DNA of 64,000 nt from a phage, in assembly GCA_019338205.1 (NCBI GenBank), contig GCA_019338205.1_4761.1; one strand, written 5' to 3'. The notes under the pieces were generated by a model, which was given only the letters and a program-made list of their open reading frames with translations, was not told where the DNA came from and did no database searches. Within the stretch, counting starts at the first letter, position 1. Each line of letters opens with the position of its first letter. Positions 24,461-30,122 of the stretch are shown here, in pieces. A program made the translations under genes and the position numbers.

Positions 24461-24483
24461 GAAAAGGGGCTTAACGCCCCTTT
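24461..24483 (-). terminator. intrinsic terminator after wac
   Basis: aaaggggc-guuaa-gcccc stem followed by UUUUC on minus strand. Confidence 0.5.
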
Positions 24484-24489
24484 AATTTC

Positions 24490-26259
24490 TTATACCGGAG
24501 AAATTCCAAAGAGGAACTCTTTAATTTGTAGCTGTTGCGCTAATGCTTCTTCGGATACGCCCTTAATGCGAATATCGATCCGGTCGCCCTTTTCAATATT
24601 TAGGAAAGCACTGGTAGAATAGCTAATTAAATCATCAGTTCCATAATGACCATTTCGTACCTCATGTACAATCAGACCATTTTTAGCAATACCGACTACG
24701 AAAGTAGCGTTATGTGCCGCATTTACATAACAACGGAAATCACAACGGAATAAGCCTTTGTCGTTAACCGTAACAAGAGATTCGCTCTTAACTATTCCAC
24801 GCGCAGGAACTTCTTCGGTCATATCGTTTAGCGGGATTCCTTTGTATTGATCTTGTCCGTCGAGAGTAATATCAATCTGAGCGGTGTTTTTAAATGCACC
24901 AGCCGCCCATGCGACCTGAACCCATTCCCCGTGCTTACGTAGATAATGGAAACCATCATCAGGAACGTCTGTTACCTTGCTTGCATTTGATGTGCTCAAT
25001 TCCTTAACAGTTTTCACGATCCCATCTTGTTCAAGCTGCGTGCTTCCTTCTGGATTGCCGTACATGTCGCTTGACAGCTTAATAACCCCGGCGGTTAGAC
25101 CGGAATCTCGATCTCCGATCATCTGCTCGATATCCTGTACGCTAGCTTCTAGTCGTCCCTGTGTATTTTCTACAATTTTTAGACGACCTGCGATAGTATG
25201 ACGCTCACTATCAGTACCAACTGTGTTAGAGATTCGTGCAACCTCACCACGTAGGCCATCAGCACCACTAACACCGACAATAGATTTAAGATCTACAAAT
25301 TCCCGTTCTTGATTAGTCAATCGATAATCAATACTTCCAGCGGCTTGAGGATTGCCAATCGTATTTTCCAGAAGAGTTAAACGAGGACGGATACCAGCGT
25401 CAAAGCCGTTGACTTCATCATTAAGCTGTGTATAATCAGATTGTAGCTTAGTTACTTTAGTCCCGATATCAGGAATTGATTCAAATAGAATCGCTTTCTT
25501 TACTTCCTGAACTTCGTTTGATATACTAGCGATATTGCGAGTATTTGTGCGAAGACGAAGATAAACATTGTCCTGTGTTGCTAGTGATGTATCGCCTAGC
25601 TCGCTTCGCATTTTGTTAACTTGTTTTGTTAGCTCTCCAACGTCAGAATCTTGCCAGTCGTTTTCTAGTTGGCGGATTCGCTGACCGTGGTTGTTTAATG
25701 CTTCCGTATTCTGGATAACTCGATATTTGATACCGGAACCGGAACTACCTGGATCTGGATAACCGTTGATATTGAAGTTAGGGAAAGCGCCCAATTCTTG
25801 TTTGATGAAAGAAATATCATCATATATTGTTCGTGTACTCGGATCTGCTGCCGGACGAACACCAATTTTCTTTCCTGTCTCCGCCAGTTCATCTACTGTG
25901 GTTTGTAATGTCCTTGAAGTTTCTCCTAAATTTTCTTCTACAGACTCAACCTTTGCAATAGTTTGATTGACAATATCAATAATACTACCATCAGCAACCG
26001 CGCCTAAAGTAGTTTTAATATCATTAACTGCGGTAACAACTTCGTTAACTTTTGTTACCGTTGTCTTAGAATTTTCATCCAGACGAACAATATTTTCTTG
26101 AATAGCATAAGGGGCGCGGTTAAGCGTCCCCTCGTGTCCTGTTTCTGTGGTTGCTGCGCTTAGACATTCACCATTTTTAATCCAGCTAATAGAATGCTGT
26201 CCCTCTCCAGGGACACCATCGACGTTAGGGATCTTTCGAATGTTTAACTGTTCGATCAT
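24490..26259 (-). CDS. wac: fibritin (whisker / neck collar protein) with extra C-terminal domain
   Basis: 589 aa; N-terminus ...VDGVPGEGQHSISWIKNGE matches T4 fibritin; coiled-coil body; foldon-like PDDGFHYLRKHGEWVQV followed by about 130 extra residues. Confidence 0.75.
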   Translation of the reverse strand: MIEQLNIRKIPNVDGVPGEGQHSISWIKNGECLSAATTETGHEGTLNRAPYAIQENIVRLDENSKTTVTKVNEVVTAVNDIKTTLGAVADGSIIDIVNQTIAKVESVEENLGETSRTLQTTVDELAETGKKIGVRPAADPSTRTIYDDISFIKQELGAFPNFNINGYPDPGSSGSGIKYRVIQNTEALNNHGQRIRQLENDWQDSDVGELTKQVNKMRSELGDTSLATQDNVYLRLRTNTRNIASISNEVQEVKKAILFESIPDIGTKVTKLQSDYTQLNDEVNGFDAGIRPRLTLLENTIGNPQAAGSIDYRLTNQEREFVDLKSIVGVSGADGLRGEVARISNTVGTDSERHTIAGRLKIVENTQGRLEASVQDIEQMIGDRDSGLTAGVIKLSSDMYGNPEGSTQLEQDGIVKTVKELSTSNASKVTDVPDDGFHYLRKHGEWVQVAWAAGAFKNTAQIDITLDGQDQYKGIPLNDMTEEVPARGIVKSESLVTVNDKGLFRCDFRCYVNAAHNATFVVGIAKNGLIVHEVRNGHYGTDDLISYSTSAFLNIEKGDRIDIRIKGVSEEALAQQLQIKEFLFGISPV

Positions 26260-27662
26260 TATTGTACCCTTATCATGTAGTTTAATGCAAGGCTTTTAAC
26301 GCGAGTTTCGCCAGACGTTCTAACCTGTCTTGCGCTGTCAAAGTTAACAATACTACCCCAATCATCACCACCACCGTTTTTATAGTTCGTGCTCCATTGA
26401 CCGCCTGTGATGGCAAATACACCACCAGTCCAACCGCGCCAACGGTTAGCTACAGGGAAGTTACCTGTCATATGTTGCATGGTGTCGTCTTGATAAGTAC
26501 CAAATCCACGACCTGGGTCTAGTCCTCGACTGTGGTCGCATCCTCTAGCAACAAGCCCTCGCATATCGGGTAGAGCAAAGTTGTCTCCGCCATCTCCGCC
26601 GTAAGTGAAACCGATTCGTGAAAATAATACTGGATATTGGTGTTTATTTAACCATTGACCGTTGCAGATTTTGAATTGTGCGTGGTCGAAACTGTTAAAT
26701 GCTGTAAGAATGATGCCACCAATAGGCATACAAAGACCATCCAGTTCATTTTTAATGATAAACTGGTTTCCGTCGCCTCCACTATGACGATACACATCGC
26801 CAGTAACGACACCACCACTTAGAGGCAATACACGAGCATTTGCCGACAGTGCTGCGTTTGCCTCGCCTGATCCTGGGTTATCTGTTAGCTTAACAACACC
26901 GAATTGTCCAGTGGTTGCTTTAGTGTTCGCAAATTTTTGTGCTGATACTACTACTGTGTTGTCATTACCGTCAATCATTTGTTGTGATGAGGCAATTTTA
27001 ACAGTACCCGCCTGATTTTCATTTGCTCTTGCGTTGGAAAATGCATATGGACTAACGGCAAATCCTTCTCTGATAGTACCAGCAAGCGTTTGTTGGCTTG
27101 TCGCCAGTCTAACTAAACCCTCACGGGACTCGGTCGCCGTGTTTTGTTCTGGAATCAACCCAGGAACAATCTGAGCAATAGCAGCGTGCATCTTTTTAGG
27201 CGTGACCGCCATAGTGTCATCACTACCGATTTTTGCCGCATCCATAGAACAGATTTTAATTGTACCCTGTACGGTTTCCGTTGCTTTCTTATTCTCGAAT
27301 ACATGGGTTAATGTATCAGGACCAATTGCAATATTTGGAGTATCGCCCATAGCTTCATCGTTATTAGCATAGCGAGTGATCCCTTTGACAAGTTTTGTTG
27401 CGTCCGGTCTTGACAGCTTAACAGCCAATGTTTTGGGGGTAACAATTTTAGTTCCATCCAACCCATCATCTACTTCTTGTTGAGTAGCAATTTCAGCAAT
27501 ACCCGCTGTTTCTTCGGTTGCCGTTGGAAGACCTGCAATAGCAAATCCCTGAATAGCGGCTAATGCCGCTTGTACGTTTTTTATATTGCTAGGCCAATTT
27601 CCGGTAGGGTCAAACTTAACATACTGTGCATCGTCTTTTACGTGATTAATAGTGTTATTCAT
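26259..27662 (-). CDS. 12: short tail fiber protein gp12
   Basis: 467 aa; synteny between wac and 11. Confidence 0.75.
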   Translation of the reverse strand: MNNTINHVKDDAQYVKFDPTGNWPSNIKNVQAALAAIQGFAIAGLPTATEETAGIAEIATQQEVDDGLDGTKIVTPKTLAVKLSRPDATKLVKGITRYANNDEAMGDTPNIAIGPDTLTHVFENKKATETVQGTIKICSMDAAKIGSDDTMAVTPKKMHAAIAQIVPGLIPEQNTATESREGLVRLATSQQTLAGTIREGFAVSPYAFSNARANENQAGTVKIASSQQMIDGNDNTVVVSAQKFANTKATTGQFGVVKLTDNPGSGEANAALSANARVLPLSGGVVTGDVYRHSGGDGNQFIIKNELDGLCMPIGGIILTAFNSFDHAQFKICNGQWLNKHQYPVLFSRIGFTYGGDGGDNFALPDMRGLVARGCDHSRGLDPGRGFGTYQDDTMQHMTGNFPVANRWRGWTGGVFAITGGQWSTNYKNGGGDDWGSIVNFDSARQVRTSGETRVKSLALNYMIRVQ

Positions 27663-27673
27663 AATTTTACACC

Positions 27674-28318
27674 TTACGCAATACGCTTAAAATAAAATAG
27701 TGTTGAATCAAATTTTTCTTCCGTTCCCAATCTGGACCATGCACCATAACCATAACGAGCAGGGGAATTTATTTCCCCACGAACGCTAATACCATATTTT
27801 TCTACGACCGTTGCTTCGTGTGCGTTTGAATCAATATACTGAATCTCTATTTTATCGTTGCCAGTACCTTTCCTCTCAACTCTAGAGAATAAGATACTTT
27901 TGTCTTTCAATTCATTAAATTTTGTTGTGACCATTTCGCATAATGCAACATTCGACGTTCCAACATTAACAACAAATGGATAACCCAAAACTTCAATTAC
28001 AACTTTTTTCGCGGCTGGATCGTGTTTATTTGTTACCGTTCCAGTGAAAGAAAGAGTTTCTATTTGTCCCGCCGCTTCCGGTGGAGTTGAATTTGTAGTT
28101 ACCAATACATCACCAACATTAAGCATAGAAATGCTATACAGGTCATCAATTGCCGACTGCACGTTGTTAATAAAAGAACCTTTGCGAGATTGGTCTACGT
28201 TTAATCCACCAATTGGGCGAATGTCACCAATAATGGGGTCTTTCGACCCCGGATCGTATGAAATGAATGCTGCGTCACTAGAAAATACGCTTGCTTTAGA
28301 ACGTGTTTTAGAAATCAT
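27674..28318 (-). CDS. 11: baseplate wedge / short tail fiber attachment protein gp11
   Basis: 214 aa (T4 gp11 219 aa); synteny. Confidence 0.75.
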   Translation of the reverse strand: MISKTRSKASVFSSDAAFISYDPGSKDPIIGDIRPIGGLNVDQSRKGSFINNVQSAIDDLYSISMLNVGDVLVTTNSTPPEAAGQIETLSFTGTVTNKHDPAAKKVVIEVLGYPFVVNVGTSNVALCEMVTTKFNELKDKSILFSRVERKGTGNDKIEIQYIDSNAHEATVVEKYGISVRGEINSPARYGYGAWSRLGTEEKFDSTLFYFKRIA

Positions 28319-28319
28319 A

Positions 28320-30122
28320 TTAACCTACCCTTAACCAGCGATGAACGGTGCGATATGGAGGAAGAATACCCATCATTGATGGATCAGCATTTCCAGAATT
28401 AACTTTTACGATATCCTCTCTATATTTCGTAAACGCTGGACCTGCCGCATCAGGATCAACTTGACAGCCACCAATGATAATTGACCCCGTATCGTCTTTC
28501 ACCAAAACACGATCACTGGATTGTAATTCAGGAATCATATCTTTCTTGATTTGATAGGCAACTTCACCACCAGTACCACCAGCGGTGTGTGTAGGTTGTC
28601 CATGAATATCAAGATCGTTATTGTTTAATGCAAAATTCTGGTCGCTGGCATCGGAAGACCAACCAGCAAGAAATTCTCCTTCCGCATACCGAACCCAGAT
28701 ACCAATACCCATATATGTCGCTGGGTTAGCTGGGTTATGTGCGTTTTCGTATATCGTGCCGATCGGATGGAAAATATCAAACAGTGCATATATATCCATA
28801 ATTCGACCTGAATACTCTTCTGCCGGACGAGTGTTTTTCTGGCTAGGATTCTGGAAGTCGGTATATTCAATTTGTTTTGTTAAATTAACTTCGTCTTCGT
28901 TATTGAGATAAATCTTGTCTGCTTTTTCTTTAATTCCGCCGACACCATCCCATTCTAATAGAGTTCCGATATCGTTATTAAACCAACGAATTGTTATAGT
29001 ATCTCTATTGTCCAACGCTTTAGCTAATTTAATCCCTGTTACAATGCTATTCTCATCAAATACCAGTGAATAATCTTCTCCAGACTGTACCCACTGACCG
29101 CCAGCAAGTGCGCAACTCTCTTCGGTTTCTCCGTCAGCACCTTCACAAACAAACGAAGGAAGATCAGCATCACCAGCTTTAATCATTTGAGTACCATTTA
29201 TTAATAACTCAAATGAATTTGGGTTAATTATATCACGTTTACTAACTCCCAAATCAGCATTGGTAAATTCTTTTTTCGTCGATAAATCACCTACCCACAC
29301 TTCACCCGGAATAGTTTCTAGTGCTGTCATTCCGGTATCATACACTCTAATTGTGTGTGTGATATAACTAGATCGGAATGATGCAATTCCGTCCATATAT
29401 GTAATAATTTGAACGGTATCCCCAGCCGAACAAGGAAAACGAAGTTTTATGCTTTTGCCATCAAGTTCAACAAGTGATCCATCCTCACCAATTGAACCGT
29501 AGTTAGAGTCATTACTAAAAGACTTGCCATAATATAAAAGGTTTCCTCGATAATATACTTCAACATTTCGAGTGTTATATGTGTTAGAACCAAATACATT
29601 AGGGAAATCTGTTTGCCCTTCTGTGGCAATATAAACTTCCTTAGCTACTGTGCTTAGGTCAGACGTGGTGATCGTGTCAACTCGCTTGTTTTCGATATAT
29701 TCCCAGCGTCCAGGCGCACAATAAACCAGTTCAACATCCATAAAATCTTTATACAACTCACGGTCGATTGGAGATCCCTTAATGGTATCACCTTGTGCTG
29801 GCTTAAGTGTTACGTTATGAGACGCCCACGAGCGCCAAACATCACGAAGTTTAATTGTCTTGTTATAATCACCAACTCCACCTTTAGGCAATTCAACAGA
29901 AACAGCGTTGTTCGTTGTATTAATCGCCCATGCATCACCAAAATTTGGTTTTAATACTGGTTGTGTGTGAGTTTTCCACGCGCCGGATGCATGAGGGATA
30001 TCACCATCCCCCAGCTTAGTATAAAGTTCAGAAAAGTTGTCATTAATCTTTTGACCGCCTTTTCTTAGATAATCACCTGTACCGTCATCAACAACGTTAC
30101 CGATATTAATTAATTGTTTCAT
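28320..30122 (-). CDS. 10: baseplate wedge protein gp10
   Basis: 600 aa (T4 gp10 602 aa); synteny. Confidence 0.8.
   Translation of the reverse strand: MKQLINIGNVVDDGTGDYLRKGGQKINDNFSELYTKLGDGDIPHASGAWKTHTQPVLKPNFGDAWAINTTNNAVSVELPKGGVGDYNKTIKLRDVWRSWASHNVTLKPAQGDTIKGSPIDRELYKDFMDVELVYCAPGRWEYIENKRVDTITTSDLSTVAKEVYIATEGQTDFPNVFGSNTYNTRNVEVYYRGNLLYYGKSFSNDSNYGSIGEDGSLVELDGKSIKLRFPCSAGDTVQIITYMDGIASFRSSYITHTIRVYDTGMTALETIPGEVWVGDLSTKKEFTNADLGVSKRDIINPNSFELLINGTQMIKAGDADLPSFVCEGADGETEESCALAGGQWVQSGEDYSLVFDENSIVTGIKLAKALDNRDTITIRWFNNDIGTLLEWDGVGGIKEKADKIYLNNEDEVNLTKQIEYTDFQNPSQKNTRPAEEYSGRIMDIYALFDIFHPIGTIYENAHNPANPATYMGIGIWVRYAEGEFLAGWSSDASDQNFALNNNDLDIHGQPTHTAGGTGGEVAYQIKKDMIPELQSSDRVLVKDDTGSIIIGGCQVDPDAAGPAFTKYREDIVKVNSGNADPSMMGILPPYRTVHRWLRVG

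Follow-up and report, generated by a model that had tools for sequence, protein, structure and literature searches.

The C-terminal module of fibritin, the protein that governs the timing of long tail fibre deployment in T4-like phages, is the part that differs between phage groups. T4 fibritin (487 amino acids, aa) stops 7 residues past its trimerising foldon, whereas the fibritin gene wac on a 64,000-nucleotide (nt) stretch of phage DNA (contig GCA_019338205.1_4761.1 of GenBank assembly GCA_019338205.1, here called the window) encodes a protein that runs on for ~140 more residues (450-589). This raises the question of whether the extension is real, how it folds and what it might do at the tip of the neck whisker. 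An earlier note, made from the letters of the window alone, had proposed a foldon-like segment followed by a C1q/TNF-like domain that could lend the whiskers a host-sensing or adhesion role. Here the foldon is identified as retained and the extension as a globular head with a predicted TNF/C1q-like jelly-roll fold. The gene and the parts of its product are located as follows:

24490..26259, minus strand: wac (fibritin, neck whiskers), 589 aa plus stop codon, as given by a program-made list of open reading frames (ORFs)
26110..26259, minus strand: N-terminal neck-attachment domain, residues 1-50, the part best conserved in comparison with T4
24985..26109, minus strand: segmented alpha-helical coiled-coil shaft, residues 51-425, which aligns with the T4 fibritin shaft
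24910..24969, minus strand: foldon homologue DVPDDGFHYLRKHGEWVQVA, residues 431-450, at positions 65-91 of the Fibritin_C profile
24493..24903, minus strand: TNF/C1q-like jelly-roll head, residues 453-589 (137 aa)

The product was recognized as fibritin by several profiles. PHROG 1056 ('fibritin neck whisker') matched across residues 1-581 with an E-value (E) of 2e-180, and with phmmer residues 7-430 were found to be homologous to residues 6-435 of T4 fibritin (2bsg_A, E 3.9e-52). In the whole window Wac, Pfam Fibritin_C (PF07921) scored 87 bits against a cut-off of 21 at residues 368-450. At the DNA level the gene is 99% identical to the annotated wac genes of Escherichia phages JSE, phiS and FL20 and ~75-80% identical to those of RB49 and its relatives; its product shares 98.5% of its residues with JSE Wac and 77.6% with RB49 Wac. 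The 58 phage records that matched are, without exception, from the genus Krischvirus or from unclassified relatives. Judged from these sequence comparisons, the window gene is the wac gene of a Krischvirus and its product the published RB49-type fibritin, in its JSE-type allele. A precomputed Pfam tag, PF28231, on close relatives was a 'faint' STB2_C match and was disregarded.

The foldon-like segment is a genuine homologue of the T4 foldon, as judged by alignment and by the Fibritin_C match. It could be aligned with the T4 foldon structures 1rfo, 4ncv and 1avy, and in a separate alignment T4 foldon residues 456-480 corresponded to window Wac residues 425-449. When counted by hand, the motif PDDGFHYLRKHGEWVQV (residues 433-449) is identical to the T4 foldon PRDGQAYVRKDGEWVFL at 11 of 17 positions. 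A comparison of DVPDDGFHYLRKHGEWVQV with EAPRDGQAYVRKDGEWVFL showed that P, D, G, Y, R, K, G, E, W and V are all identical; the key foldon residues kept in DVPDDGFHYLRKHGEWVQV are the proline, the D-G turn and the Tyr, Arg and Trp of the hairpin core. A beta hairpin was predicted by AlphaFold2 at foldon residues 439-448. Fibritin_C stayed above its cut-off when the 169-aa C-terminal fragment was scanned alone (24.2 bits), and a profile built from C-terminal fragments retrieved only foldon-containing chains from the PDB.

The head begins four residues past the foldon. The earlier note had counted about 130 residues behind the foldon, at 24490-24900, which corresponds to residues 454-589 plus the stop codon; ~140 were found, and the strings quoted there (FRCDFRCY, GIAKNGLIV and IEKGDRIDIRI) are all present in the translation. 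The gene is exactly 1770 nt long, with no insertions or deletions, in nine of nine Krischvirus sequences compared. In tblastn searches the head query was covered over 100% of its length in 58/58 phage records, and metagenomic relatives, down to 29-31% identity, comprise 587-591 aa. The architecture of foldon plus head is kept in T4-like phages down to 31% identity, and the extension is under purifying selection, its ratio of non-synonymous to synonymous substitution rates (dN/dS) being below 1.

Structure prediction of residues 421-589 with AlphaFold2, using an alignment of 13 sequences as input, resulted in a mean predicted local distance difference test (pLDDT) score of 84 and a predicted template modelling (pTM) score of 0.75. 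Past residue 450 the pLDDT was mostly above 90 and about ten beta strands were predicted; 10-residue blocks of the extension scored 86-95, except for two blocks at 77 and 84. The extension is therefore a confidently predicted beta domain and not a disordered tail. That it is an artefact, caused by a frameshift, a read-through or a fused ORF, can be dismissed with very little hesitation in view of the constant reading frame, the full-coverage records, the distant relatives of similar length, the purifying selection and the confident fold. In a model of the full-length monomer the head was the only globular part that folded confidently, and residues 51-424 were predicted as loop-interrupted helices with low confidence, as one chain of a trimeric coiled coil had been modelled alone. 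The N-terminal domain, to which a neck-attachment role is ascribed in the T4 literature (PMC3797505), is 82-100% identical within Krischvirus, with a dN/dS of 0.03-0.06. Gene identity, domain boundaries and a confident fold prediction are thus in hand.

The jelly-roll guess is borne out by the predicted fold and by structure comparison. In the predicted model the head forms a ten-stranded antiparallel jelly roll that is superimposable on TNF or gC1q. Fold matches included cerebellin, C1q chains, many TNF ligands, the NC1 domain of collagen VIII and PRD1 P5; phage receptor binders among them were the receptor-binding domain of TM4 gp23 and the receptor-binding protein of lactococcal phage 1358. 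Foldseek concurred and added BxpB, 4-1BBL, C1QL, adiponectin, collagen X NC1, the phi812 spike knob and the BC2L-C lectin. Among the predicted viral structures of BFVD, 468 matched at E ≤0.001, many of them phage fibre proteins with collagen or C1q annotations. Pfam BclA_C (PF18573) matched 11 of 13 aligned family members (best E 3.3e-7) and Pfam C1q (PF00386) matched 6 of the 13 (best E 0.0024), and the window head itself scored 18.1 bits (E 0.0026) against a Pfam cut-off of 38. Structurally, the head is a distant member of the TNF/C1q superfamily, and it lies outside the BclA_C and C1q Pfam families at curated stringency. The identity of wac and the fold of its head are both close to certain.

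When the PDB was searched with the head, by sequence as well as by profile, there were only foldon matches and one chance immunoglobulin (Ig) match, so that the TNF/C1q kinship emerged from fold comparison only. When 1.84 billion representatives were searched exhaustively with the head as a single-sequence HMMER query, the matches kept were all fibritins (P0008, and P0020 at 29% identity), and at the level of sequence the head is therefore confined to this fibritin family. Two repeat proteins that were also matched were discarded as additive-score artefacts. The full-length Wac query was needed to gather relatives, as a word-indexed search with the head alone yielded only two fragments of 110 aa. 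In the phage collection, the head module was found by tblastn only in the 58 Krischvirus records. Two short stand-alone proteins in BFVD, A0A1J0MHA5 of Klebsiella phage KPV15 (159 aa) and A0A192YAF6 of Morganella phage MP1 (141 aa, annotated 'fibritin neck whiskers'), matched the foldon-plus-head model with target-normalised template modelling scores (TM-scores) of 0.77-0.79. TNF-like whisker modules may thus occur as separate genes in other T4-like genera.

The N- and C-termini of a TNF/C1q jelly roll are both located at the trimer base. As the first strand of the head starts four residues past the foldon, the head would rest immediately on top of the foldon, and its apex would face away from the shaft. 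A trimeric state of the window head is suggested by the trimeric fibritin stalk, and trimer formation has been reported from biochemical work on T4-like fibritins (PMC3797505).

The window protein was compared with known systems. Its length of 589 aa, gene position and architecture are all like those of the RB49-type fibritins (RB49 gpwac, NP_891719; JSE, Phi1 and other Krischvirus phages), from which it has no essential difference; head residues 453-589 are 76.6% identical to RB49 gpwac. With T4 fibritin (1aa0, 1avy, 1rfo, 2bsg) it shares a homologous N-terminal domain, segmented coiled coil and foldon, but T4 fibritin lacks a head and window Wac adds a globular one of 137 residues past the foldon. 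The T4 foldon trimerises alone, whereas the RB49-type protein requires its larger C-terminal domain (PMC3797505). The C-terminal domain of BclA, ExsFA/BxpB, gC1q and the TNF ligands are only 8-19% identical in sequence to the window head, and the stalk is a different one, an alpha-helical coiled coil plus foldon in window Wac and collagen in the BclA and C1q kin. The TNF-like heads of phages (A4, 9k09; A-1(L), 8ke9; Pam3 gp24, PMC9608196; PRD1 P5; 1358; TM4 gp23) have the fold in common with it and likewise belong to trimeric virion fibres. They are, however, carried by host-recognising tail fibres or vertex spikes, in contrast to the window head, which is on a neck whisker.

Fibritin C-termini have been sorted into about eight types, including an RB49 type (Letarov and Krisch, PMC3797505). 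The JS98 type has two foldons, so that a foldon can be internal, the RB43 type has Ig-like domains and the Aeh1 type has a large C-terminal domain and a separate chaperone (PMC3797505). Like window Wac, these three types conserve the N-terminus and shaft and differ in the C-terminal module; the added module is TNF/C1q-like in window Wac and Ig-like, a second foldon or a tail-fibre-like domain in the others. The longer C-terminus of the RB49-type fibritin had been described in 2005 and in 2013, and the expanded domain was reported to be needed for folding (PMC3797505). In 2022 the C-terminal part of RB49-like Wac was called 'unrelated to that of T4 Wac' (PMC9569957). The picture of a T4 C-terminus replaced by alien sequence is corrected here, since the foldon is kept and a domain is appended to it. 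A full-text literature search of incomplete coverage found no assignment of a TNF, C1q or BclA fold to the RB49-type fibritin. As the enlarged C-terminus was already annotated and published, the retained foldon and the TNF/C1q fold appear to be refinements of what is known, and the result is one of annotation, not a discovery; the recombination of alleles within the head, described below, is a further addition to the knowledge of this fibritin type.

Variation along the head was studied by column entropy among 14 homologues and by substitution rates. One stretch was the most variable:

24775..24885, minus strand: head residues 459-495, from strand A' to the B'-B region, most variable by column entropy

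Entropy in this stretch reached 1.4-1.6 bits, the highest values, and was 0.4-0.9 bits in the foldon (0.65), strand A, strand F and the B-C and D-E loops. By TNF/C1q topology these low-entropy elements lie at the base of the head, which supports a conserved packing of the head on its stalk. The motifs HN (residues 516-517) and NGHYGTD (536-542) are invariant or nearly so in Krischvirus-like fibritins and are lost in the most distant homologues, P0019 and P0020. The same topology would place both loops at the apex, where they are candidates for a partner-binding or metal site. Conserved-motif sites were recorded at window positions 24943-24951 and at head residues 516-517 and 536-542. Deep comparisons gave the head a dN/dS of 0.15-0.18 and shallow ones a dN/dS of 0.34-0.42; in the latter that of the shaft is 0.03-0.10. 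Positive selection was not accepted as proven from the raised shallow values, as these rest on few substitutions.

Recombination has occurred within the head of two relatives:

24790..24834, minus strand: two recombination breakpoints in relatives, from an analysis of informative sites

In ECD7 (L003) the crossover lies at residues 475/476, with 363 of 365 informative sites to the left being RB49-like and 68 of 71 to the right window-like. In Ec_Makalu_002 (L008) it lies at residues 489/490 (375/377 RB49-like to the left, 61/62 window-like to the right). According to these sites, both phages carry an RB49-type wac joined to a distal head of the window/JSE type that reaches to the stop codon, the outcome of two independent crossovers. 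The chimeric genes show that one head allele can take the place of another on a shaft of a different type and alongside tail-fibre proteins of the RB49 type; in 2013 the C-terminal module of fibritin was viewed as no longer mobile (PMC3797505). Homing endonuclease genes were found past gene 13 in ECD7 (L003 2957-3408), KFS-EC (L004 2944-3408) and Makalu_002 (L008 2944-3408), and between genes 14 and 15 in JSE (L001 3449-4204). The window is devoid of these genes, and its genes 13, 14 and 15 abut. Homing endonucleases may promote exchange of the adjacent 3' end of wac.

The allele differences extend beyond wac. Comparison of the window with RB49 gene by gene delimited a region of divergence:

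24490..30122, minus strand: divergence island of gp10, gp11, gp12 and wac, by nucleotide identity to RB49

Within the island the nucleotide identity to RB49 is 83% for gp10, 72% for gp11, 70% for gp12 and 75% for wac. Its edges are sharp, with 98% identity in gp9 and 97% in gp13, and for the remaining structural and flanking genes in the comparison the values are 92-99%. Between the two classes of wac alleles the synonymous rate (dS) in the shaft is ~1.8, which implies old alleles moved by recombination and no fast local evolution. The cassette of short tail fibre and whisker seems to have been swapped as old alleles within Krischvirus.

Concerning the function of the head, the reading that we favour, and hold to be somewhat more probable than not, is that foldon and head together form a cap for trimerisation and registration and, at the same time, a distal whisker knob that holds the long tail fibre. 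C1q, BclA and the collagen VIII/X NC1 heads register and trimerise their own stalks, and the T4 foldon does so alone. By analogy with this fold family, and with the published biochemistry, foldon and head of window Wac would co-trimerise at the C-terminus and fix the register of the three chains, and this trimerisation would start the folding of the segmented coiled coil from the C- to the N-terminus. From its position the head would form a knob at the distal tip of each whisker. In T4 the neck whisker is known to manage the long tail fibres of the phage itself; the distal part of the whisker touches the long tail fibre just below the knee. As the T4 whisker tip meets the long tail fibre, the head is a likely docking surface for assembly and retraction of these fibres.

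The presumed partner is enlarged as well. In 2005, Letarov and colleagues reportedly noted that a novel C-terminus of gpwac is accompanied in phages by a novel C-terminal domain of gp36. Krischvirus gp36 comprises 496 aa compared to 221 aa in T4, with homology only in the first ~171 residues, so that both sides of the proposed contact between whisker and knee are enlarged in Krischvirus. The rest of Krischvirus gp36 carries repeated GDTMTG-like motifs (JSE, L011 5301-6791, and relatives).

Several observations weigh against this combined cap and docking role. Within Krischvirus no co-variation was found between the alleles of the Wac head and the tail-fibre knee proteins gp34, gp35 and gp36. 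In ECD7 and JK32 these proteins are 97-99.8% identical to those of RB49, and the heads are ~18-25% different. Between JSE and RB49, gp36 is 95-100% identical over residues 1-400 (per 100-residue window) and 82% identical in the last ~96 residues; this divergent stretch borders on the mosaic gp37 N-terminus and does not track the head allele. Furthermore, wac lies in the same divergence island as the host-contacting gp10-12 module, and the dN/dS of the head is 2-5x that of the shaft, so that part of the surface is less constrained or is adapting. Many phage fibres and bacterial lectins use this fold in a head that binds a receptor or a sugar, and the retained foldon may leave the head redundant for folding.

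These points lead to the strongest competing explanation, a real if minority possibility, in which the head is an accessory adhesin: a lectin-like knob that weakly and reversibly binds O-antigen, the lipopolysaccharide (LPS) core, capsule, enterobacterial common antigen (ECA) or mucus. Through such binding virions would accumulate at cells, or contact with a cell would be signalled and the long tail fibres let go. Many of the fold matches argue for it. The closest solved matches include a domain of the A-1(L) short tail fibre deposited as 'CBD', the A4 tail fibre and the receptor-binding protein of phage 1358 in a structure with N-acetylglucosamine (GlcNAc), as well as vertex protein P5 of PRD1 and the receptor-binding domain of TM4 gp23; TNF-like bacterial lectins (a Photorhabdus lectin and BC2L-C) are also among the matches, and many of the 468 BFVD matches are fibres with collagen-/C1q-type tips. 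The raised shallow dN/dS of the head, which reflects few substitutions, and the position of wac in the divergence island are in line with an adhesin, as are the head difference between JSE and the window, which is non-synonymous only (dN 0.010, dS 0), and the independent variation of head alleles and gp34-36. Accessory-adhesin roles have been proposed for other variant C-termini, for example the RB43 Ig-like domains (PMC3797505), and O-antigens are receptors of RB49-like phages (PMC9569957). On the other hand, the head does not show hypervariability like the gp37 tip of the same genomes, in which ungapped gp37 identity collapses past residue 300, and it diverges at the pace of the whole protein (77% vs 78% identity to RB49). 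Since all of wac including the shaft has diverged, the island reflects old alleles and not adaptation of the head. In addition, isolated phages carry chimeric heads, several fibritin types occur on phages of E. coli, which was read in 2013 as speaking against a role in host range (PMC3797505), and sequence alone identifies no sugar-binding site.

A more specific form of this explanation, which we consider rather doubtful, is that the whisker-tip knob is a lectin for a host glycan such as O-antigen and acts as a second, capsid-proximal host sensor that biases or triggers fibre release. If this were true, both crossovers that brought in a distal head of the JSE type would reflect selection on a binding surface.

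It is improbable that the head is a purely structural cap, a stabiliser of the trimer and its register that serves as a larger substitute for the foldon and has no partner on the virion. The reported need of the expanded domain for folding (PMC3797505) would agree with such a cap, and so would the tolerance of chimeric heads and the fact that very stable TNF/C1q trimers register collagen-like stalks, the heads of C1q, collagen VIII/X NC1 and BclA all being matched. However, with a conserved foldon just upstream, a second domain that merely trimerises is not obviously needed, and the predicted exposed loops (HN and NGHYGTD) are strongly conserved in Krischvirus. In T4, moreover, fibritin meets the tail fibre with its C-terminal part, which is its functional end (PMC3797505).

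Auto-cleaving C-terminal chaperone domains occur in other phage fibres. With this precedent, and with the C-terminal domain being needed for folding (PMC3797505), the head might be an intramolecular chaperone that is cleaved after assembly and absent from the mature virion, which we regard as very improbable: Pfam and PHROG scans of Wac found no peptidase, S74 or auto-processing chaperone family, and in the matched solved phage fibres the TNF/C1q-like fold belongs to the fibre itself.

The favoured role as cap and docking knob can be addressed directly, as foldon and TNF/C1q-like head form a concrete expressible construct (about residues 426-589) that makes the function testable and could reveal what, if anything, the whisker tip binds, be it the tail-fibre knee or a host glycan. 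The naturally stacked unit of foldon and TNF-like domain may also appeal to those in protein engineering to whom the foldon serves as a trimerisation tag.

The neighbourhood of wac is that of a T4-like neck region. The gene sits between gp12 and gp13, as seen from the ORFs of the window and in agreement with the annotations of JSE and RB49. Upstream lies a 467-aa ORF, the gene 12 short tail fibre, and downstream lie homologues of the neck genes 13 and 14 and then gene 15. The order gp9-10-11-12-wac-13-14-15 is also found on uncultured T4-like contigs of two relatives (52% and 31% identical). A conserved hairpin was identified in the gap that separates wac from gene 13:

24463..24483, minus strand: GC-rich stem-loop followed by a T run, before gene 13, 6 nt past the wac stop codon

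The hairpin has the form AAAGGGGC-GTTAA-GCCCCTTT and is followed by the T run. A scan for terminator-like elements flagged the stem on the plus strand only; the T run on the strand of the gene was read by eye. The hairpin is conserved in RB49, JK32 and KFS-EC. In the distant T4-like contigs L016 and L017 it is kept with both sides of the stem changed and with GAAA or GCAA loops, and it is likely a terminator or a stem that stabilises the mRNA.

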